Source: a virus
Taxonomy: Duplodnaviria; Caudoviricetes
Length of the DNA: 64,000 bases
IMG/VR virus record: IMGVR_UViG_3300037067_027643
Span: 64,001-128,000 of that record
Strand: one strand, 5' to 3'
In this document: positions 19,605-30,332 of the stretch, piece by piece
Layout of the letters: each line of letters starts with the position of its first letter
Position numbering within the stretch: the stretch's first letter is position 1
The notes under the pieces: model-generated
Database searches by the model: none
Told to the model about the DNA's origin: nothing
The model's input: only the letters and a program-made list of their open reading frames with translations
Made by a program: the position numbers and the translations under genes

Positions 19605-20901
19605 TCATAATTCACAAAATTTATTAATATTTCTCAAACTTGTTAATTCTGTAGTTAATTGTTTCTTTGTATTTGGTGTTTCTAATACCGCTTTATTTGT
19701 ATCTACATTAAATGAAACTAATTTCCAAACATATCCACGATTCTTAGCCCATGATACATGGTATTTTCGTCCAATTATATATTCTTTTGGTATATCTTTT
19801 AATTCTGTCATATTTTATCCAAAATTAATCATACCTTCTGGATATTTCTTCCAAAATTTAACCAATTGTTTTATTGCTTCTTGTTTTAAAATATTTCTAT
19901 CAGTTTTATCAAAACAAGTAGAAGTATAATAAATATTATCATCATTATCTTCTAAATATTTTAACGTTTCTTCTAACGAAAATAAAATATCATCTGGATA
20001 ATCTCCTATACGAAATACATCATGTGGTAAATCGTTAGAAGAAATATAAAATATTTGTTTTTTACAATTATATGAAGTTACATTATAATTTGATGTATGA
20101 TACTTATTATATATAGCAATCTCACATAATCCTTTTTTAACAATTTTTAATTGTCTTTCAACAATAGCTTTTTGTTTAATTCCATAATCGATAGTCCATT
20201 CTGGATATGTTTCTAATAATTCTAAATCTATTTTATCTCTATGATTTATCATATTATCATAAAACTTAATAGATCTTTTATATGTATTAATAACATTATT
20301 TCTAACTTTATCTTTGCTTATATTATACGGTTTAAAAAACCAAGTATGACATCCCATATTATTTATTTTTAATTATTATTTAAACGGATTAAACCCACTA
20401 TATCTCAAATCATTTACATTTGCTATTCTACTATCATCTACTATAGTTTCTTCATTTGTTACTATTACAGAATCTTCTACATCACACCAATATTCTTCTG
20501 GTAAATTTTTATCAATATTAAACTTTTGATATAAAAATTCAGATATAGGTTCTTGTTTAACTCCATTTTCAAAATATACAACCTCTCTATAATCTCCAAT
20601 TTTAAAAATATTTTCTTTTAAAAATGGAGTATAAAACCTTTTTACATACTGACCTATGTACTTAATGTATTGTCTGTAATTAGTTTTGTTATTCATATTT
20701 ATTTTAATGATTAAATGACTCTTTATATGTATGACCACAATTTTTACATTTATATTCTACTCTTGTTATATATAAATTATAATTTCTTAATTTTCTACTA
20801 AACTGTTTAATTTCATTTGATAAAGAAACAGTTTCACGACTAATTTCTTTAAATTGACAAAATCCAAAGAAACATAAAATATTTTTAATTAATTGTATCA
20901 T
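19605..20901 (-). other. Four small hypothetical genes (19605-19811, 19815-20357, 20376-20738, 20704-20901)
   Basis: Tandem ORFs downstream of rtcB. Confidence 0.55.
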
Positions 20902-22283
20902 AAATTTAATATTTTTTTATTATTTTTACGTTCTTCTCTTTCCTGTTTCATTTTCTTATTAGCTTTTCTATCTTTCCATGATTCTCCTTCACTACTGTCT
21001 TTGATATTCAATATAGGTTTTACTCTATCAATTATTTCAATAGTAGGTTCCAATAATAGTTCAATTAATTCACTGTCTTTATAAGATTGTGGGCTTTCAT
21101 CTAATGTACCTTTACAAACAGAAGTTGAATAAATCCCTTCCATAGACTTTTTAAAATCATCTAAATTTACTGTTTCTTTTGCTTTAGTTCTACTCATTAT
21201 TCTACCGGCTCCATGAGCACAACTGTAATTCCAATCTGGATTAGATTTACCGACAGCGATAACCATTCCATCTCTCATATTAAATGGTATAATCATCTTT
21301 TTATCTTTGTAAGATGCTATTGCTCCTTTACGAATTATAAAATCATTAAAATCGACATAATTGTGAATTGACTCTATTACTTCATCAAATTTAGTAATAT
21401 TTAAAACTTCTTGAATAATATCTAACATTGTTTTTCTATTCCAAACTGCATACTGTTGAGCAAATATCATATCAAATAAATAGTTTATTAAATATTCATC
21501 TTGTAAGTATTCTCGATCTATTCCTATACCAAACTTTTTTTTAAGTGAATCAATTTTATTTGGTATCTCTTTCTTATCAACTGTATTTAATACAATTTCA
21601 TTTAATCGTTTACTGTAATTATTAGAAGATCCATTCATTTGTTTTTTAGCTTGATTTATCCAATATTCTGCTACCTTTAAACCAAAGTTTCTACTTCCAG
21701 AATGAATGGTTACATAATAATCTGTAAGTGCTTGATTTACACCTATTTCAAGAAAGTGATTGCCTCCACCCATTGACCCAATACTATTAAAAAACTTCTT
21801 GATATTCATTTTAATATCTTTTAATTTTTTAATTAACCATTGTTCACTATATAATGGAGCTACATAATTTGTATTATATTTAACATTAAATGCTTTTACA
21901 AACTTATCTGCTATTATCTGTACATCATTGTATGGAATATCAGTAAAAACAGGACTTTTATGTTCATTAAATCCCATTGGAATTCTATGTCTGATTTCCT
22001 TATTTATTTTTTCTAAATCTAAATTAGAAGCATTTGGAAACTTTCCACTAATGAGACCACAGCCAATATCAACGCCTATATAGCTGGGTGTTAAGTAGTT
22101 ACCTAATTCCATTGTAAATCCAATACAAATTCCTTTACCAAAATGAGCATCCGGTTGAATTCTTACTTTAAGTCCTTTTGATATTGGAGAATTGATAATC
22201 GAATATATTTGAGAAATTACTTCCTCCTCTACATTATCAATGAATATTTTTGCTGTTGTATATTTCCCTGTTAATTCTATCAT
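20898..22283 (-). CDS. rtcB: RtcB family RNA 2',3'-cyclic phosphate ligase (tRNA repair)
   Basis: PDAHFGKG, GVDIGCG, GGGNHFLE, IHSGSRNFG, HNY, RKGA, HGAGR, DESP..YK. Confidence 0.95.
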   Translation of the reverse strand: MIELTGKYTTAKIFIDNVEEEVISQIYSIINSPISKGLKVRIQPDAHFGKGICIGFTMELGNYLTPSYIGVDIGCGLISGKFPNASNLDLEKINKEIRHRIPMGFNEHKSPVFTDIPYNDVQIIADKFVKAFNVKYNTNYVAPLYSEQWLIKKLKDIKMNIKKFFNSIGSMGGGNHFLEIGVNQALTDYYVTIHSGSRNFGLKVAEYWINQAKKQMNGSSNNYSKRLNEIVLNTVDKKEIPNKIDSLKKKFGIGIDREYLQDEYLINYLFDMIFAQQYAVWNRKTMLDIIQEVLNITKFDEVIESIHNYVDFNDFIIRKGAIASYKDKKMIIPFNMRDGMVIAVGKSNPDWNYSCAHGAGRIMSRTKAKETVNLDDFKKSMEGIYSTSVCKGTLDESPQSYKDSELIELLLEPTIEIIDRVKPILNIKDSSEGESWKDRKANKKMKQEREERKNNKKILNL

Positions 22284-23282: not shown

Positions 23283-24195
23283 TTTATTTTGAGAAAAGAC
23301 TGAAAATATTTTAAAACAGCTACGTCTTTCATCTTAGCTTCTACTATTATAACCACATCTTTACCTAATGTATCCACTGGTTCATAAATATAATCAGCAT
23401 GTGATTGTTTACTCAATTTTTATCTACAACATTTTCAAATAACAATTTACTACTAGAATGATGAACGGTTGGAATTATATGTTTTGGCCATGTATTATAT
23501 GATAGCAAAAATGCTTCTTTGTATGTTAACTTACCCGAATTAATCTTATAATGTAATGAGTCAAATACAATTGGAATTCCTATTTGTTCATGTATAGCAA
23601 ATAAATCTTGAACTGTAAACATATTACATTTATCATCATTTTCTACAGTCAATCTTTTTTGAACATTCTTATCTAATCTATTGAAGTTTTCACAAAATCT
23701 ATCAATAGCACTGGTTTTATCTCCATAGCTTGCGCCTACATGAACATTTATCTTGGTATTATTATCAGCATTAAAACTCATTAAATCAAATATTCGGCTT
23801 GTAGCATTTAGTTCTAATACAGTTTTATCAACTACATCCTTTTTATTACTAGCTAAAACATTGAATGGTCCGGGATGAAAGGAAAGTCTAACATTGTTAT
23901 TTCTACAATAATCTCCAATAGTTTTTAATTCTTGAACGATTGTTTTATAATCTGGTAAATCTTCAAATCGATAAAATGTTTTTAAGGGAAAGAAGTCATC
24001 TGGAAGTCGATAAGCAAATATACCATTATCAACGTTCCATTTTAAAATAATTTTTAAATCTTGTATGTTTTTTATGATTAAATCATTAACAGCTTGTACT
24101 CCTTTAATACCAAAACTTTTTCTTGTAATGGTATGGCCAGTCTTACAGTCTGGAATTGATAAATTTATACAAGCATATCCGAAGATTTGTTTCAT
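23270..24195 (-). pseudogene. uvsE: UV-damage endonuclease UvsE/UVDE, split by a -1 frameshift near 23416
   Basis: GYACIN, RLSFHPG, INVHVG, RLTVENDD, PIVFDSLH motifs; conserved C-terminus SHADYI...IVEAKMKD lies in the -1 frame after the TGA at 23413. Confidence 0.8.
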
Positions 24196-24199
24196 ATTA

Positions 24200-25113
24200 T
24201 TACTTTACTGTTTTAATCCAATATCTATATTTTAGATTTTTAGCATGTTTTAAACCTTCTTTGCTTTTTTCTAATTGTTCATTCCAATAACTAATTAAAT
24301 TTTCTTTAGCATATTCAAATGTATCAAATGATGTTGTACTAGAAACTATATCTAAATCATAAAGAAACTCAGAGAAATCTTCTAATGTACCTATAAATCC
24401 TTCATCATAACTAATATAAAAAAGGTTTATTTCTTCTTCTGTAAATGTATCTAAAGACGATGACATATTATTCGATTATTAATTTTCCAAATACTTTTTT
24501 AAGTTTGGGTTTATCATTTACATAATCCATTAATTGAATATGATTTGGAAGCATTTCAATATTGTTTAAGTATTTTTGTGCAATATTATTAGCTCTTATT
24601 ACTAACAAATGTGCATACAAAAGACATATTTTTTGTTCTTCCATATTCCAACCAGTATAAGGTTCATCAAACTCCTCCAAAATTTCTAATGTTCCCAATT
24701 CTCCAACAAACATTTTAATAAACTTAGCAACCCTTGATGAATATTTATTTTCTTCCTCTAACTGAACTAATAAAGAATTAAATTTTTCCAATAAAACATC
24801 AAAGTTTCCTACTGGTTTAATATCTGATAATTCATATATGGTTGTTTTCATTATTTAATAATTTATTTACTACATTAATAGCATCCTTGAGTAAAATAGC
24901 TGTTTCTGTATTTCTATAAGCTATCTCAATAAAATATTTATTACAATCCTTGAATATTTCTTCTATGTTAGCAGCTGTTTTGTTAGTATATTCTTTAATC
25001 CATTCATCTTCATCTAACTCTCCTTGATTATAACTTGGATACATACCTTTAATTTCGCCAGCTTTAAAAGCATTTCTTAAATCTTCTTCTGTATATGTTT
25101 TCATAATTGACAT
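24200..25113 (-). other. Three small hypothetical genes (24200-24466, 24468-24851, 24832-25113)
   Basis: Tandem ORFs after promoter 25138-25169. Confidence 0.55.
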
Positions 25114-25137
25114 TTATTTTATTAATTTTTAAAAGTA

Positions 25138-25169
25138 CAAAGATAATAAAAAATTTTGATATAAACAAA
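25138..25169 (-). promoter_or_regulatory. Bacteroidota sigma70-type promoter
   Basis: TTTG-N20-TATCTTTG. Confidence 0.7.
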
Positions 25170-25199
25170 TTTATTTTTTAAGGAGGAAAAATAAAGTAG

Positions 25200-25271
25200 A
25201 GCCCATTTCTGGAATTGAACCAGAATATATAGTTTTGCGGACTACTGACTAAACCATTCATCCAAATGGGC
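25200..25271 (-). tRNA. tRNA-Cys(GCA)
   Basis: Cloverleaf; anticodon arm GTAGT-CCGCAAA-ACTAT; U73; C at position 33. Confidence 0.85.
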
Positions 25272-25278
25272 ATTTTTG

Positions 25279-25365
25279 CATACGTTGTAGGATTTGGACC
25301 CACGAGGAAGTATAAACTTCAATAGTTTTGGAGACTATCGCCTTCGACCACTTGGCTAAACGTAT
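25279..25365 (-). tRNA. tRNA-Trp(CCA) with long variable arm
   Basis: ATAGT-CTCCAAA-ACTAT; A1-U72, G73; V-arm GAAGT-TTAT-ACTTC. Confidence 0.85.
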
Positions 25366-25378
25366 GTATATCAATTAG

Positions 25379-25459
25379 TTGCGAGAGAGGGACTTGAACC
25401 CTCGAGGCTTACGCAATGGGATATGAGCCCATCCTGATACCAACTTCAGTCATCTCGCA
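25379..25459 (-). tRNA. tRNA-Met(CAT), initiator-like, enlarged variable arm
   Basis: ATGGG-CTCATAT-CCCAT with three consecutive G-C pairs; 12-nt V-region. Confidence 0.8.
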
Positions 25460-25465
25460 ATATAT

Positions 25466-26563
25466 TTATATTTCTAAAATTACATCTTTATGATCTAAAA
25501 TTAATTTGAAATTATATCCATGTTCTTTATAAGCTTTTAATTTATCTTTCATGTTTTGTTCATTGTATGTATAATTACTTTTTATTTCTACAATTAAATT
25601 TGTGTCTGGTAAATAAAAATCGGGTATTGCTGTTCTTTGTTTTAATAATTGTGTATCCCAATATGAAATTCTTAATTTTTCAACTTCATAATTAATTTTA
25701 TCTTTATCTAATTGGTTAGCATATTCTAATTCATACCCACTTCTATAAAATATTTGTTTATTATTCCAAGTAGTATGATATCCATGTTTATAATGTGAAT
25801 TTTTATTAATTACATTTAATTTTCCATGAATTATAGCATTTCCAGTACTTTCAGAAAAACATCGTAATTTAATATTAAAATAATTTATCACTTTATTAAA
25901 ATTTGATAAAGAATATCCATATTTCTCTGACATATCTGAAGTACTTAATTTTTCATCATAATAGTCTTCATATAGCATAATTCGAATTCGTTCAAATTCT
26001 TCGTAATAATTTTTGGTTCCTAATACATTTTTATCAAATCCAAAGTATTTTATTAAATTTGGAATTATTTGATATCGTTTACAAATTTCTGGATGTTTAC
26101 ATTGACCTTTTATTGATCCACACATTTTACAATCAACATTATTAAATCTTTTTCTTTGATATTCTAATTTACAAATATTACATAAACATTTTTTAATACT
26201 ATTTCTTTTATTAACAATAATATCGCTTCCGCATTTAACACATTTAGCTTCTTTTGTTTCTAAATTATTATCGTTTTTTGTACTATATTTATGAGAACAA
26301 TACGAAGAACAAAATCTACCACTACCATACGAACCATCTATTTCTATACCACATTCTTCACAATATAATTGCTTTATTTCAATTATTTTATTAGCATTAA
26401 TTATTGCCTTTTTCTTCTCTTTTGTTATTCTACATAATTCTATTTGTTCTTTTGTTATTATTCTACTTCTACTACATGATTTTGAACAAAATTTTCCAGT
26501 TCCATAAGAACCATTATGTTCATGTCCACATTTTTCACAAAATTTTTTATTTTCCATATCCAA
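25466..26563 (-). CDS. Putative free-standing homing endonuclease (Cys-rich Zn-finger repeats plus PD-(D/E)XK/TnsA-like domain) inside tRNA array
   Basis: CxxC...YGxGxFCSxxC repeats; YRSGYE...PDFYLP...IVEIK. Confidence 0.75.
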   Translation of the reverse strand: MDMENKKFCEKCGHEHNGSYGTGKFCSKSCSRSRIITKEQIELCRITKEKKKAIINANKIIEIKQLYCEECGIEIDGSYGSGRFCSSYCSHKYSTKNDNNLETKEAKCVKCGSDIIVNKRNSIKKCLCNICKLEYQRKRFNNVDCKMCGSIKGQCKHPEICKRYQIIPNLIKYFGFDKNVLGTKNYYEEFERIRIMLYEDYYDEKLSTSDMSEKYGYSLSNFNKVINYFNIKLRCFSESTGNAIIHGKLNVINKNSHYKHGYHTTWNNKQIFYRSGYELEYANQLDKDKINYEVEKLRISYWDTQLLKQRTAIPDFYLPDTNLIVEIKSNYTYNEQNMKDKLKAYKEHGYNFKLILDHKDVILEI

Positions 26564-26621
26564 ACTATTTTACATTTTATATATAAATAGTAAATAGTTT
26601 GAAAATAAATTCCGCAATATT

Positions 26622-26630
26622 TCAAAGAAC
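26622..26630 (-). promoter_or_regulatory. boxA-like element
   Basis: GTTCTTTGA between tRNA-Thr and the endonuclease gene. Confidence 0.6.
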
Positions 26631-26651
26631 AATTTTAATTTTATAAATTTG

Positions 26652-26724
26652 AGCCAATAGAAGGAATCCAACCCTCAACCCTTCCGGTACAAACGGATTG
26701 CTCTAGCAATTGAGCTATACTGGC
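26652..26724 (-). tRNA. tRNA-Thr(TGT)
   Basis: TCCG-TTTGTAC-CGGA anticodon arm. Confidence 0.85.
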
Positions 26725-26741
26725 ATTACATTATTATAGGG

Positions 26742-26818
26742 CGGTCTATAAGGAATTTGAATCCTTCTGAACATTCCGAGTGACAGTCGGACAGCCACAC
26801 CTAGCAGCTCCATAGACC
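26742..26818 (-). tRNA. tRNA-Asp(GTC)
   Basis: TCCGA-CTGTCAC-TCGGA; G73. Confidence 0.9.
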
Positions 26819-26842
26819 AATTATATATTATATTAATTTTAG

Positions 26843-26915
26843 TGAGACTATGAGGAATCAAACCCCAATCCTATGAACCGTACTCATAAATTCTATTCAA
26901 TTGAACTATAGTCCC
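26843..26915 (-). tRNA. tRNA-Arg(ACG)
   Basis: TATGA-GTACGGT-TCATA. Confidence 0.85.
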
Positions 26916-26930
26916 AAATTAATAATAAAG

Positions 26931-27003
26931 TATTCGGTACGGGAGTTGAACCCGTATGTCAAGATTGAAGGTCTTGAATCCTTACCAATTAGATGAACCG
27001 AAC
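26931..27003 (-). tRNA. tRNA-Glu(TTC)
   Basis: CAAGA-CCTTCAA-TCTTG; C at position 33. Confidence 0.85.
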
Positions 27004-27019
27004 AAATGTCTTGTATATG

Positions 27020-27092
27020 TAGCCAAAGATGGAATTGAACCATCGCCCTGTATCTTATAAGGATACTGCTCTTACCACTGAGCTACTTGGCT
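27020..27092 (-). tRNA. tRNA-Ile(TAT)
   Basis: GTATC-CTTATAA-GATAC; A73. Confidence 0.85.
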
Positions 27093-27103
27093 ATATTTAA
27101 TAG

Positions 27104-27178
27104 TGGAATCTATGGTATTCGAAACCATCTGCTGTTCTCAGTGCAAATGAGATGACCACCCTAGCAGTCCCAGACCCC
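27104..27178 (-). tRNA. tRNA-Ala(TGC)
   Basis: TCTCA-TTTGCAC-TGAGA; G3-U70. Confidence 0.9.
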
Positions 27179-27189
27179 GTTTATATTAG

Positions 27190-27264
27190 TTGGTGTAATT
27201 GGATTTGAACCAATGACCTCAATCTTATCAGGATTGTCGTCTGACCGGGCTGACATATACACCA
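27190..27264 (-). tRNA. tRNA-Ile(GAT)
   Basis: CAATC-CTGATAA-GATTG. Confidence 0.9.
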
Positions 27265-27274
27265 ATATAATTAG

Positions 27275-27346
27275 TGGAACTAGATGGATTTGGACCACCG
27301 ACCACTTCCTCTTCAGGGAAGCACTCTACCACTGAGTTATAGTTCC
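27275..27346 (-). tRNA. tRNA-Phe(GAA)
   Basis: CTTCC-CTGAAGA-GGAAG. Confidence 0.9.
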
Positions 27347-27356
27347 ATTGTATTTG

Positions 27357-27430
27357 TAGGAATACCAGGATTCAAACCTGGGATCTAGTGGATGTAAACC
27401 AATCGCTTTAATCAACTAAGCTATATTCCT
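27357..27430 (-). tRNA. tRNA-Val(TAC)
   Basis: ATTGG-TTTACAT-CCACT. Confidence 0.85.
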
Positions 27431-27440
27431 ATGTTATCAG

Positions 27441-27513
27441 CGACTCTAATACGGAATGATCGTATAACCTACCGGTTAACAGCCGGTTGCTCTACCAATT
27501 GAGCTATAGAGTC
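27441..27513 (-). tRNA. tRNA-Asn(GTT)
   Basis: ACCGG-CTGTTAA-CCGGT; atypical T-loop ATCATTC. Confidence 0.85.
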
Positions 27514-27522
27514 ATATATTAG

Positions 27523-27594
27523 TGCCTTCGAATCGACTTGAACGATTACTCTTACATCTTAAAAGGATGAGATTTTACATTAAACTACGAAGGC
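27523..27594 (-). tRNA. tRNA-Lys(TTT)
   Basis: CATC-CTTTTAA-GATG. Confidence 0.85.
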
Positions 27595-27599
27595 AATTG

Positions 27600-27682
27600 T
27601 GGAGGAAGAGTGATTTGAACACCCATAGCTTTTTGCGACGGATTTACAGTCCGCTGATTTCTACCCACTTACCATTTCCTCC
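27600..27682 (-). tRNA. tRNA-Tyr(GTA)
   Basis: GCGGA-CTGTAAA-TCCGT; long V-arm. Confidence 0.9.
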
Positions 27683-27702
27683 ATTATATATTATTATCTT
27701 TG

Positions 27703-27774
27703 AGCGAGATAACGGGTTCAAACCGTTGACAAAGCATTGGAAGTGCCTCATGTTATCAACTACACCAATCTCGC
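27703..27774 (-). tRNA. tRNA-Gly(TCC)
   Basis: AGGCA-CTTCCAA-TGCTT; U73. Confidence 0.9.
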
Positions 27775-27796
27775 TTAATTCATTTATATCAATACG

Positions 27797-27805
27797 TCAA
27801 AGAAC
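27797..27805 (-). promoter_or_regulatory. boxA-like element
   Basis: GTTCTTTGA between terminator and first tRNA of array 1. Confidence 0.65.
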
Positions 27806-27820
27806 ATTGTTTTTAATTCA

Positions 27821-27859
27821 AATAAAAAACCCAACTAGTTTTTTAATTTTCTGGTTGGG
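27821..27859 (-). terminator. Attenuator terminator of tRNA array 1
   Basis: CCCAACCAG-N12-CTAGTTGGG (one C-A mismatch) followed by TTTTTTATT. Confidence 0.75.
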
Positions 27860-27896
27860 TTTTATATATTTTATTATAATATATTTTTTAATAAAC

Positions 27897-28052
27897 TCAC
27901 CAACCAACATCTTTTGCTTCTTCTCCAAAACGATAATCATTATTTGTTTTTGCTATAAAAATACAACCGTCCACAAACATCATATTTTTATCTATAATGC
28001 TATTGTTCCAACATGTATTATTAATGACTGTATTATTTCGCTTTGTTTTCAT
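27897..28052 (-). CDS. Leader peptide 1 (51 aa) of tRNA array 1
   Basis: MKTKRNNTVINNTCWNNSIIDKNMMFVDGCIFIAKTNNDYRFGEEAKDVGW*; its 3' end TTGGTTGG is complementary to the terminator 5' arm. Confidence 0.75.
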   Translation of the reverse strand: MKTKRNNTVINNTCWNNSIIDKNMMFVDGCIFIAKTNNDYRFGEEAKDVGW

Positions 28053-28133
28053 TTTATTTTTTGTTATTACTTCTTTTTATTTTATATAAATAGTTAAAAA
28101 TAAATTAAAAATTTTCAATTTCAAATTATTTTA

Positions 28134-28165
28134 CAAAATTAAGTAAATTTTTTCACTCTACCAAA
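28134..28165 (-). promoter_or_regulatory. Bacteroidota sigma70-type promoter upstream of leader 1 (also ACTATTTATA motif at 28085-28094)
   Basis: TTTG-N20-TAATTTTG. Confidence 0.75.
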
Positions 28166-28232
28166 TTTATTTTTAATTATTTTAATATACAACATTATTT
28201 TCAAATAAACAAATAAAATTTAATTGTAATAT

Positions 28233-28997
28233 TTATTTATCCCAAATATTATTAAATTTTGAATAATCAATATCTTCGTATGGATATTTATCATTAAAAT
28301 ATTCCAATTTTACTATATCAAATGTATTTAATAATTTTTTATCATCTATCAATAAAATTTTTATATTTGTTTCATGAATACATTTCCACATTTTACATTT
28401 ATCATTTTCACTCATCCAACCTTTTACTTCAATATATACATCAAAATCAGGCAAATAAAAATCTGGCGTATAAGAACGAGATTTATCAAATTTGACTCTT
28501 ATTCTATCCCAATTTATTTTTAATTCATTTAATCGTTCCGCTACTGTTTTTTCCCATTTTCCTTGAACATTAATTATTTTATATCCATTATATATCGAAT
28601 ACCACAATATATTATTTCCTTTATTTTCTTCTAAAAATTTTATCCTATGTTCTGACATTTTCTTTCTTGATTCAATTGTATGGTTTTTATTATTCCAATA
28701 TGGTATTATTTCGCCATTTTCAAATTTCTGTTTAAGATTAATACTAGTATTTTTAAGTCTATCATCATTTTCTTTTGTTAATCCCTTATTCCATTTCATA
28801 TTTTCTTTTGATTCTTCGGGAAAGTCTAAAAATTTTTCTTTACCCGATTTTATTTTTCCAGAACTATATGATTTTTTTAAACCATTACTATTTTTTAACC
28901 TATTTGCTGGACATTGATTAAAATGCTCTGAACAACAATATTTACCATTTTTTAATTGATATTTTCCTTCTTGACCGCAATTATAAGCACACAACAT
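28233..28997 (-). CDS. Putative homing endonuclease (NUMOD3-like segment plus PD-(D/E)XK domain) between the tRNA arrays
   Basis: N-terminal CxxxCG...CC..C; WNKGLTKE; HTIESRKKMS; YTPDFYLP...YIEVKG. Confidence 0.75.
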   Translation of the reverse strand: MLCAYNCGQEGKYQLKNGKYCCSEHFNQCPANRLKNSNGLKKSYSSGKIKSGKEKFLDFPEESKENMKWNKGLTKENDDRLKNTSINLKQKFENGEIIPYWNNKNHTIESRKKMSEHRIKFLEENKGNNILWYSIYNGYKIINVQGKWEKTVAERLNELKINWDRIRVKFDKSRSYTPDFYLPDFDVYIEVKGWMSENDKCKMWKCIHETNIKILLIDDKKLLNTFDIVKLEYFNDKYPYEDIDYSKFNNIWDK

Positions 28998-29046
28998 AAT
29001 TTTTACTATTTGTTTACTTATAAATAGTAAAAATTATTATTTTTCG

Positions 29047-29120
29047 TATCCACAGAAGGAGTCGAACCCTCAACCATTGGGGTAGAATCCCAATATTCTA
29101 TCCAGTTGAACTATGTGGAC
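29047..29120 (-). tRNA. tRNA-Arg(TCT)
   Basis: TTGGG-ATTCTAC-CCCAA. Confidence 0.9.
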
Positions 29121-29127
29121 ATTTTGG

Positions 29128-29201
29128 GGTGGCACTCGAGGATTGAACTCAAATCAACAGATTCACAGTCTGCCCGCTTAACCATTTAGCGTAATGTCAC
29201 C
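29128..29201 (-). tRNA. tRNA-His(GTG)
   Basis: GCAGA-CTGTGAA-TCTGT; G-1/C73. Confidence 0.9.
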
Positions 29202-29216
29202 ATTTAAAAATTATAT

Positions 29217-29225
29217 TCAAAGAAC
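29217..29225 (-). promoter_or_regulatory. boxA-like element
   Basis: GTTCTTTGA between tRNA-Pro and tRNA-His. Confidence 0.6.
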
Positions 29226-29237
29226 TATTGTTATCTG

Positions 29238-29314
29238 TCTAGGCGGTGCGATTCGAACGCACGTTATGTCGTGTTTCCAAAACACGCTAGTTTAGCCATC
29301 TGCTGTACGCCTAG
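29238..29314 (-). tRNA. tRNA-Pro(TGG)
   Basis: CGTGT-TTTGGAA-ACACG; C1-G72, A73. Confidence 0.9.
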
Positions 29315-29320
29315 TTATTG

Positions 29321-29406
29321 CGGAAAAATAAGGATTCGAACCTTAGGGACTGTTACATCCACGTCATTAGCAGTGACGCACAATAGACCAACTCTGTCAT
29401 TTTTCC
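29321..29406 (-). tRNA. tRNA-Ser(GCT)
   Basis: CGTCA-CTGCTAA-TGACG; long V-arm; G73. Confidence 0.9.
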
Positions 29407-29413
29407 ATTATAG

Positions 29414-29487
29414 CAGCCAAAACTGGGCTCGAACCAATACTCCGACAGTCAAAGTGTCGTATGCTTTACCGATTACATTATTTGGCT
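29414..29487 (-). tRNA. tRNA-Gln(TTG)
   Basis: CGACA-CTTTGAC-TGTCG. Confidence 0.9.
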
Positions 29488-29494
29488 ATAAAAG

Positions 29495-29581
29495 CGGAAG
29501 GTTAGGGACTCAAACCCCAGATACGGTATTAGCGTATTACTAATTTTCAAGATTAGCTCTTCGTTCAGCCAGACACCTTCC
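29495..29581 (-). tRNA. tRNA-Ser(TGA)
   Basis: CTAAT-CTTGAAA-ATTAG; long V-arm; G73. Confidence 0.85.
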
Positions 29582-29606
29582 ATTTATTATTTACAATACA
29601 TTATTT

Positions 29607-29615
29607 TCAAAGAAC
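29607..29615 (-). promoter_or_regulatory. boxA-like element
   Basis: AGTTCTTTGAAAA between terminator and first tRNA of array 2. Confidence 0.65.
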
Positions 29616-29623
29616 TTATATTC

Positions 29624-29659
29624 AATAAAAAACCCTATTTACTTTTGATTTAAACAGGG
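29624..29659 (-). terminator. Attenuator terminator of tRNA array 2
   Basis: CCCTGTTTA-N9-TAAATAGGG (one G-U) followed by TTTTTTATT. Confidence 0.8.
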
Positions 29660-29688
29660 GTTGTAATGTTTTTATATATTATACTATA

Positions 29689-29808
29689 TCATCTATAAAT
29701 ATCACAATACACCTGTTCCCATTGACTATGTCTTGGTTGTAAGCACGATGGTCTACTATTAATTGAGGGTTGATGTTGATGATTATATGTAACGATATTT
29801 ATTTTCAT
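29689..29808 (-). CDS. Leader peptide 2 (39 aa) of tRNA array 2
   Basis: MKINIVTYNHQHQPSINSRPSCLQPRHSQWEQVYCDIYR*; ACTATTTATA motif upstream at 29836-29845. Confidence 0.8.
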   Translation of the reverse strand: MKINIVTYNHQHQPSINSRPSCLQPRHSQWEQVYCDIYR

Positions 29809-29870
29809 TATTTTTGTTTTATTCTTTTAATTTTATATAAATAGTAAAAAAATTTTAAAAAGTTATTTTG

Positions 29871-30272
29871 TTAATATTTAAGATATTCTCCATCATTTTC
29901 TTTTCCTGTTCCTAAGTATTCTTTAAATCCAGTAATAATTGACATTGCTCGATCCATACAAGGTTTTATTTTTTCATCTTCTCCCCATTTTTCAATTTTA
30001 TATTGTAATGGTTTATAATTTCTTAAAGAAATATCTGATTTTGTAATTAATCCATAGTTATTAGATTCTGTTTTAACTATTGTAAAAGAAACAAATGGAA
30101 TTGATTCTACTCTACCAATTATATGTTCATTCTTATTATTTAAAATAGATAAATCTTGTTCTTTATCTTCAATATTAACTAAACCAGTATATATTTCTCC
30201 TTCTACAATACTATATCTATCTTCTAAAGATTTATATTCGGTTTTATATTTTGTCCAGTTAATTGTTATCAT
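29871..30272 (-). CDS. hypothetical protein
   Basis: 133-aa ORF after TTTG-N20-TAATTTTG promoter at 30290-30321. Confidence 0.6.
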   Translation of the reverse strand: MITINWTKYKTEYKSLEDRYSIVEGEIYTGLVNIEDKEQDLSILNNKNEHIIGRVESIPFVSFTIVKTESNNYGLITKSDISLRNYKPLQYKIEKWGEDEKIKPCMDRAMSIITGFKEYLGTGKENDGEYLKY

Positions 30273-30332
30273 AGTTTCGATTTATTCTACAAAATTAAGT
30301 AAATTATTTCAATCTACCAAATTTATTTTTGA

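Follow-up and report, generated by a model that had tools for sequence, protein, structure and literature searches.

The closest described counterparts of the units discussed here are the leaders of the ilvGMEDA (Ile/Leu/Val) and thr (Thr/Ile) operons, in which regulatory codons for several amino acids are found in one short translated leader, the antiterminator and terminator structures exclude each other, and ribosome stalling results in read-through. In pheST-himA (pheM leader) and similar systems, the leader senses the decoding of its own codons and controls, by feedback, the decoding machinery for the same amino acid, whereas in T-box riboswitches it is the state of the tRNA that chooses between terminator and antiterminator upstream of translation-related genes. 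Stable-RNA genes may also be preceded by antitermination leaders, as in rrn operons, where the boxA bound by NusB/NusE lies in the transcribed leader and recurs in the spacers. Phage T4 carries a tRNA cluster interrupted by endonuclease-like open reading frames (ORFs), for which, to our knowledge, no leader-peptide control has been described. Here we report on two tRNA gene arrays located in a 64,000-nucleotide stretch (hereafter the window, bases 64001-128000) of the single-contig, 285,744-bp genome (25.5% G+C) of an uncultured tailed phage (IMG/VR record IMGVR_UViG_3300037067_027643). From the sequence, and with a probability that we put at roughly 0.8, the units preceding both arrays would be ribosome-mediated leader-peptide transcription attenuators that raise array transcription when their codons are decoded slowly.

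Compared with the ilvGMEDA and thr leaders, the phage units would regulate tRNAs and not biosynthetic enzymes, each leader has one or a few codons, and no runs, for each of 5 to 15 amino acids, the predicted antiterminator is located within the ORF or at its end with no upstream 'region 1' partner identified, and a boxA-like element follows the terminator. Differently from pheST-himA, where the product is the aminoacyl-tRNA synthetase of one amino acid, the phage products are tRNAs for many. T-boxes bind uncharged tRNA without translation, whereas the phage codon signal needs the ORF frame (see below); moreover, no T-box stem I, specifier loop or T-box sequence was matched by cmscan in window positions 24800-30300, where Rfam models (E up to 1) returned only the tRNAs and chance hits of plastid untranslated regions on tRNA genes, and nothing on the leaders. 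The element GTTCTTTGA is similar to the rrn boxA, being transcribed ahead of stable-RNA genes, as part of their leader, and again within the arrays. It differs in sitting after a putatively regulated terminator and, in some of the comparator loci introduced below, in overlapping a promoter spacer. The phage itself is T4-like, as it encodes a Gp23-family T4-type major capsid protein (4e-75), and endonuclease-like ORFs interrupt its tRNA cluster as well; unlike in T4, its 22 tRNAs are distributed over blocks that appear to be separately gated.

Both units have the same order on the minus strand, i.e., promoter motif, short ORF, hairpin with U tract, GTTCTTTGA and tRNAs. This layout was the starting point of the original prediction, made from the letters of the window, and all its features are found where it had placed them (window coordinates):

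29829..29850, minus strand: promoter-like motif upstream of leader 2 (TTTTTACTATTTATATAAAATT), position weight matrix (PWM) score 26.5
29689..29808, minus strand: leader 2 ORF, 39 codons plus TGA, starting 21 nt past the promoter motif
29711..29719, minus strand: predicted core of the leader 2 antiterminator (GGAACAGGT), located 22-31 nt upstream of the stop codon's end, duplex of -9.4 kcal/mol with the 5' arm of the hairpin
29622..29659, minus strand: candidate attenuator hairpin 2 with U tract (TTTTTTATT), the hairpin at 29659-29633 having 9 bp, a 9-nt loop and -8.1 kcal/mol
29607..29615, minus strand: boxA-like GTTCTTTGA, 26 nt before tRNA-Ser(TGA)
29046..29581, minus strand: tRNA array 2, Ser(TGA), Gln, Ser(GCT), Pro, [boxA-like 29225-29217], His, Arg(TCT)
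29217..29225, minus strand: boxA-like GTTCTTTGA within array 2, between the Pro and His tRNAs
28078..28099, minus strand: promoter-like motif upstream of leader 1 (TTTTAACTATTTATATAAAATA), PWM score 24.1
27897..28052, minus strand: leader 1 ORF, 51 codons plus TGA, starting 27 nt past the promoter motif
27892..27907, minus strand: predicted antiterminator of leader 1 (TTGGTTGGTGAGTTTA), comprising the final two codons, the stop codon and the following 5 nt, duplex with the hairpin's 5' arm of -11.6 kcal/mol
27816..27863, minus strand: candidate attenuator hairpin 1 with U tract (TTTTTTATTT), the hairpin at 27863-27826 having a 12-nt loop and -11.5 kcal/mol
27797..27805, minus strand: boxA-like GTTCTTTGA, 23 nt before tRNA-Gly
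26651..27774, minus strand: tRNA array 1, Gly, Tyr, Lys, Asn, Val, Phe, Ile(GAT), Ala, Ile(TAT), Glu, Arg(ACG), Asp, Thr
26622..26630, minus strand: fourth boxA-like GTTCTTTGA, just past tRNA-Thr
25199..25459, minus strand: distal block of tRNA-Met, tRNA-Trp and tRNA-Cys, amino acids also sampled by leader 1

The amino acids encoded by the leaders follow those of the arrays. In leader 1, 50 of the 51 codons specify G, Y, K, N, V, F, I, A, E, R, D, T, M, W or C, which together are the 15 amino acids carried by the 16 downstream tRNAs (12 from array 1, plus Met, Trp and Cys); as had been claimed, Leu, Pro, His and Gln are absent, the single codon outside the set being AGC (Ser). This purity is equalled in just 18 of the 51,739 51-residue windows of the phage's long ORFs and ranks first among 277 small ORFs (40 to 70 codons, any frame). 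The core of leader 2 (codons 10-29, HQHQPSINSRPSCLQPRHSQ) is indeed mostly His/Gln/Pro/Ser/Arg, with 16 of 20 codons, the maximum per 20-residue window being 12 in the 57,319 windows of the long ORFs. Under strict two-codon wobble, the tRNAs of the own array read 46/51 codons of leader 1 and 15/20 of the leader 2 core, and the exceptions are mostly GTY, GGT or CCC, which belong to four-codon boxes with a U34 phage tRNA. The described division of arginine codons, CGA/CGT in leader 1 and three AGA in leader 2, is also present; since AGR accounts for 77% of Arg codons genome-wide, this split is weak evidence alone (p about 0.02). TGA is read here as a stop because no suppressor tRNA is found and the standard code yields 180 ORFs of at least 150 codons, and an alternative genetic code was thus rejected. 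All 22 tRNA genes of the genome fall in three minus-strand blocks between window positions 25199 and 29581, and serve 19 amino acids, Leu being the sole one missing from the whole genome. We also note that Leu makes up 8.2% of the phage proteome, mostly as TTA, and that leader 1 contains no Leu codon and leader 2 one.

The second line of evidence concerns alternative pairing. As originally noticed, the 3' part of each leader is complementary to the 5' arm of its terminator, forming the duplexes listed above. When folding was restricted to the nascent RNA between the start codon and the hairpin loop, with the 3' arm still missing, the minimum free energy (MFE) folds of both units had the 5' arm of the hairpin paired with the 3' end of the ORF, which is the outcome anticipated by the folding check suggested at the outset. 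For leader 1, the antiterminator spans -11 to +5 relative to the end of the stop; centring a ribosome footprint on the stop codon masks it, and the terminator hairpin forms in the constrained fold.

The promoter motif ACTATTTATA has 40 copies in the genome, 29 of which have an ORF start within 120 nt; the PWM was built from these 29 sites, which themselves score at least 13.5. Between hairpin and first tRNA the PWM reaches only 3.4 in unit 1 and -12.4 in unit 2, so that there is no second motif copy there in the window. As far as this motif goes, transcription of the arrays must therefore pass the leaders. The 3' half of the motif, which can be written TTTTTACTATTTATATAAA(T/A) and has about 40 copies, resembles the late promoter of T4, TATAAATA. 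A stretch TATAAATG following the first boxA-like element of array 1 was considered as a promoter element and rejected, as it is at chance level in 25% GC DNA.

Four of the five genome copies of GTTCTTTGA lie in the tRNA region and on the tRNA strand, where about 0.03 would be expected from base composition; the fifth, at genome position 226910, is without tRNA context. Among the loci fetched by the two pattern scans described below, a tRNA follows within 100 nt at 62 of 303 GTTCTTTGA sites. In a separate set of bacterial loci, the element precedes 16S in three. Two of three Bacteroidota rrn leaders examined (Flavobacteriia) have the related GTTCATTGACAGATTG and ATCATAGACATATTGGA. Because GTTCTTTGA is enriched before and within the arrays and precedes 16S in some bacteria, its RNA form GUUCUUUGA is probably a boxA of the rrn type.

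The phage DNA is present in one groundwater and one landfill metagenome, and no RNA run was listed among the datasets that contain it. Neither leader has sequence homologues beyond identical copies: for the leader 1 peptide, 5.8 billion proteins yielded identical copies only, on contigs of 9.4 kb and 0.8 kb, and since the contigs of the landfill run are identical across both leaders, they provide no natural variation to read. The search was therefore aimed at the design rather than the sequence, and it is the design that proved to be conserved. IMG/VR was scanned with the pattern GGTTTTTT-N8-30-GTTCTTTGA and then with the extended boxA alone (GTTCTTTGAMRTRTTGG), giving 34 loci with a hairpin, which correspond to 27 non-redundant leaders including the two of the window; the leader-attenuator design is thus found in 25 other non-redundant phage loci. 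At array starts, GTTCTTTGA sites are mostly preceded by a strong hairpin and U tract, and even the scan with boxA alone, which demanded no hairpin, found leader and hairpin at about 14 of 20 array-start sites (11 adjacent, 3 displaced by an insert). All 34 loci have an ATG ORF of 24-51 codons ending 14-45 nt before the hairpin, and an ATG ORF of at least 24 codons ending 10-50 nt before it occurs in 27/27 non-redundant loci versus an expectation of 2.1 in dinucleotide-shuffled sequence. In 13/27 the leader is preceded by a canonical Bacteroidota promoter (TTTG, 17-21 nt, TAnnTTTG).

In this set the 3' end of the ORF matches its own hairpin. The ORF tail (last 13 codons) pairs with its own 5' arm at a mean of -12.0 kcal/mol, compared with -7.55 when arms are permuted between loci (z -10) and with -4.3 for the ORF head (first 16 codons), the tail being better in 26 of 27 loci. 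Since the tail/arm sequences differ between loci (GGGTGTGGGT/ACCCACACCC, GAATCGGG/CCCGATTC and GGAGATGG/CCATCTCC are examples), the pairing must be kept by co-variation.

The codons likewise match the arrays. With arrays defined as same-strand tRNAs separated by gaps under 1200 nt, the own array serves a fraction of 0.536 of the leader residues, versus 0.378 for shuffled leader/array pairs (z 8.4), and 0.464 versus 0.308 of the leader codons (z 8.8); conversely, a leader contains 97.5% of the amino acids of its array, compared with 78% when the pairs are permuted. Co-variation against shuffled pairs in related phages had been named as a check by the original prediction, and it remains when the two leaders of the window are left out (z 7.7 for residues and 8.1 for codons, 0/200,000 permutations as high) and with stricter array definitions (z 5.7-7.5). 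The match exists only in the frame of the ORF (z 8.45; the +1 frame gives -0.4 and the +2 frame -1.5) and is thus a property of codons and not of base composition. It is furthermore concentrated upstream of the antiterminator (0.584 versus 0.377, z 8.9), where stalling must occur to leave the antiterminator free, whereas the part from antiterminator to stop reaches z 1.8. Leader length and array size are not correlated (rho 0.15). The central claim, that codon-matched leader-peptide attenuators control the arrays, is in this way supported, all the computational tests named for it having come out in its favour.

Relatives were also found independently of the hairpin and boxA patterns, starting from genes located just downstream of the tRNA region:

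20898-22283, minus strand: RtcB RNA ligase, Pfam 7.6e-55
23413-24195, minus strand: UvdE UV endonuclease, 6e-51

The RtcB homologues (56-60% identity) lead to contigs of up to 330 kb with 25-27% G+C, whose arrays differ and have each their own leader. A leader beginning with MRNFSKHSKSFKFW precedes Lys, Lys, Trp, Ser, Phe, Phe, Ser, His and Tyr, another, rich in N/I/Y/C/M/E, precedes Glu, Asn, Asn, Met, Cys, Ile and Tyr, and a single-amino-acid version of the design is provided by MNNNISNMIQQQQQTYV, in which five consecutive Gln codons (QQQQQ) stand before four tRNA-Gln genes. Tail/arm complementarity is present in all of them, and at four such loci the own leader ranks 1, 1, 2 and 1 of 31 for its own array. 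Relatives of the capsid protein and of UvdE are 43-64% identical; the UvdE loci hold tRNAs (11 in L101), and the fetched flanks of the capsid-protein loci L001 and L002 contained none. No relatives were found for a 133-aa neighbour gene. The design is also present in a cultured phage, Cellulophaga phage phi4:1_13 (KT962245.1, L448), in which codon-matched leaders precede two tRNA blocks. In this phage and in the RtcB relative L087, leader and hairpin occur without GTTCTTTGA. The loci concerned are:

L095:1300-1515 (G002:C1, about 217,300-217,515): MNNNISNMIQQQQQTYV leader locus, two tandem hairpins with U tracts
phi4:1_13, 87065-87133: first leader MKIQRLHLQELEQPIISGGTGV, unannotated, hairpin 25 nt past the stop, followed by Pro, Glu, Gln, His, Leu, Leu and Arg
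phi4:1_13, 87989-88108: second leader, 39 codons, annotated as hypothetical protein Phi4113_075, 30/39 residues in the amino acid set of the next 11 tRNAs

The true start of Phi4113_075 is uncertain, because its annotated TTG start falls inside the promoter. In 120 bacterial loci with the same pattern, this stood beside tRNAs in only two (L433, L439) and before 16S in three; being so rare beside tRNAs in bacteria, the architecture is typical of phages and not a common host feature. In L433 and L439, contigs of bacterial genomes, the hairpin-boxA pattern lies directly before tRNAs (Asp, Asp, Asp, Glu, Glu in one, and Leu in the other), and these contigs may be prophages, or phage contigs binned into metagenome-assembled genomes.

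The proposed mechanism would operate as follows. Transcription would begin at the phage promoter motif, and the leader ORF would be translated while RNA polymerase proceeds. An undelayed ribosome would cover or unwind the 3' end of the ORF, the hairpin with its U tract would form, and transcription would stop before the tRNAs. A ribosome stalled farther upstream by the scarcity of a charged tRNA would instead leave the 3' end of the ORF free to pair with the 5' arm of the hairpin, thus blocking the terminator and allowing the polymerase to continue. GTTCTTTGA would then be transcribed, and as a putative boxA may recruit NusB/NusE, giving processivity through the long untranslated array; its position after the regulated terminator would place the decision first and the protection of the long untranslated transcript second. 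Because each leader uses codons that its own array decodes, the arrangement would form a negative feedback loop, in which shortage of the tRNAs switches their genes on and their accumulation switches them off.

Several observations weigh against this interpretation, which is supported in silico, by the anatomy of the units, the alternative pairings, the codon match, and the recurrence and co-variation of these in other phages; leader translation, termination at the hairpins, the direction of regulation, the function of boxA and the physiological trigger are inferences. Shine-Dalgarno sequences are not present at the leaders, whose start codons are predicted, and the peptides lack the sequence homologues mentioned above. 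The hairpins of the window are weak (-8.1 and -11.5 kcal/mol, versus -12 to -21 kcal/mol in the comparators) and were not called by a simple terminator scan, because their loops (9 and 12 nt) exceed 8 nt. The expectation that a ribosome at the stop codon masks the antiterminator, borne out for leader 1, does not strictly hold for leader 2, where such a ribosome leaves the core exposed, the constrained MFE fold keeps the core paired, and just a helix extension lies under the ribosome with marginal overlap; termination there would need kinetic coupling or steric exclusion. Similarly, the idea that the leaders split the code as the arrays do fits leader 1 and the core of leader 2 and is qualified by the flanks of leader 2, 19 of its 39 codons falling in the array 1 set. 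Among the comparators, the remaining array starts of the boxA-alone scan have a promoter directly before boxA and no leader at all, and in 8/27 loci (including L176, L193, L155 and L119) U tract and first tRNA are separated by a second promoter of the Bacteroidota type (TTTG, about 19 nt, TAnnTTTG), the boxA-like motif being in several of them the promoter spacer; such a promoter would bypass the switch and give attenuation-independent expression. Finally, some of the comparator loci are related, which leaves fewer than 27 independent events, a number that the permutation p-values overstate; in a family-level clustering of the leaders, the threshold used merged almost all of them.

Of the alternatives, the one that survives best keeps the same attenuator and concerns its natural signal, which would be an attack on tRNAs, either by anticodon nucleases of the host or through phage-induced decay of host tRNAs, with the arrays resupplying what is lost and RtcB aiding. 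PrrC-type nucleases cut tRNA anticodon loops and T4 repairs the damage with its own ligase, which provides a precedent; the division of the code between two separately gated arrays would permit a selective response, and the RtcB gene lies 3 kb downstream, as it also lies beside tRNA genes in the relative L087. This trigger is nevertheless judged less likely than not, since the leaders sample up to 15 amino acids, far beyond the targets of any known nuclease, the arrays are not beside RtcB in most RtcB-bearing relatives, and starvation or host shut-off would stall ribosomes equally. Indeed, the attenuator hardware reports slow decoding whatever its cause, be it nuclease attack, host tRNA decay after shut-off, codon-usage mismatch or starvation. 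The more specific proposal of a counter-defence sensor, in which each leader detects the loss of its tRNA subset, through cutting by host anticodon nucleases or through host tRNA decay following shut-off, and turns on just the array needed, together with the RtcB ligase, is in our view less likely than not; if it were true, the leader sequences would record the tRNAs that the phage expects to lose.

Three other alternatives receive less weight. That leader translation acts by a route other than an intrinsic terminator, for instance by blocking Rho loading or by altering the stability or processing of the 5' end, would agree with the weak hairpins of the window, with the C-rich and G-poor core of leader 2 and with the fact that boxA-type complexes act mainly against Rho; it appears improbable, because the comparator hairpins are strong and have long U tracts, and the conserved alternative pairing of tail and arm has no role in a Rho model. 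Small functional proteins followed by ordinary terminators, with arrays using their own promoters past the hairpin, would explain the eight comparator loci with a promoter-like site between U tract and tRNA, as well as the annotation of one such ORF as a coding sequence in phi4:1; yet the peptide sequences are unconserved while their composition tracks the neighbouring tRNAs, no promoter-motif copy lies between hairpin and tRNA in the window, and an ordinary terminator needs no complement in the preceding ORF, which makes this explanation very improbable. Hardly credible, lastly, is the view that hairpin and GTTCTTTGA are an rrn-like leader (boxB-like stem and boxA) serving processivity, with incidental, untranslated ORFs: a hairpin precedes boxA in E. 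coli rrn leaders too, GTTCTTTGA occurs inside arrays without an ORF, and some arrays have promoter and boxA only, but all 27 loci have an ORF where 2.1 would be expected, the codon match disappears outside the ORF frame, ORF tail and hairpin arm co-vary, and L087 and phi4:1 have leader and hairpin yet no GTTCTTTGA.

Returning to the attenuator interpretation, the leaders also bear on the history of the tRNA region, into which two Cys-rich ORFs are inserted:

28233..28997, minus strand: 254-aa zinc-ribbon/endonuclease-like ORF with its own promoter motif (29033-29012), inserted between the two units
25466..26563, minus strand: 365-aa zinc-ribbon/endonuclease-like ORF with its own promoter motif (26596-26575), splitting array 1 from the Met/Trp/Cys block

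That leader 1 samples Met, Trp and Cys suggests that these tRNAs were once part of the array 1 operon, before insertion of the endonuclease gene, and the Met/Trp/Cys block is probably the distal end of this operon. Both Cys-rich ORFs have weak matches to DUF7487 and Phage_endo_I and interrupt the tRNA region in the manner of homing endonuclease genes. Parts of them show about 71% DNA identity to Prevotella Lak megaphages; similarity to GenBank phages, Lak megaphages included, is seen only in tRNAs and endonuclease genes. The position of RtcB downstream of the tRNA region, and beside tRNAs in L087, is compatible with a theme of tRNA repair. Three minus-strand tRNAs are unusually long for their type, namely tRNA-Trp (88 nt, 25278-25365), tRNA-Met (82 nt, 25378-25459) and tRNA-Asp (81 nt, 26739-26819). 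A plus-strand ORF of 191 codons (window 27522-28097), antisense to tRNAs and leader 1, is almost certainly spurious.

The mechanism of attenuation is itself known; what is new is its proposed application to tRNA genes, through leaders that spell out which amino acids the array serves. The literature searched in full text, subscription journals lying outside its coverage, contained no description of leader-peptide attenuation of phage tRNA genes, and we know of no earlier case in which the speed of decoding of their own codons controls tRNA genes by feedback. It has long been asked why phages carry tRNA genes, and compensation of codon usage, decay of host tRNAs and escape from anticodon nucleases are competing answers. 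If the proposed attenuators are real, the phage itself would treat a shortage of the array's own tRNAs as the signal that matters. The presence of the design in a cultured pair, Cellulophaga baltica and its phage phi4:1, makes it directly testable. The leaders would moreover be compact natural sensors of decoding capacity for synthetic biology and, for uncultured phages, a sequence-only read-out of operon structure, as in the assignment of the Met/Trp/Cys block to array 1.

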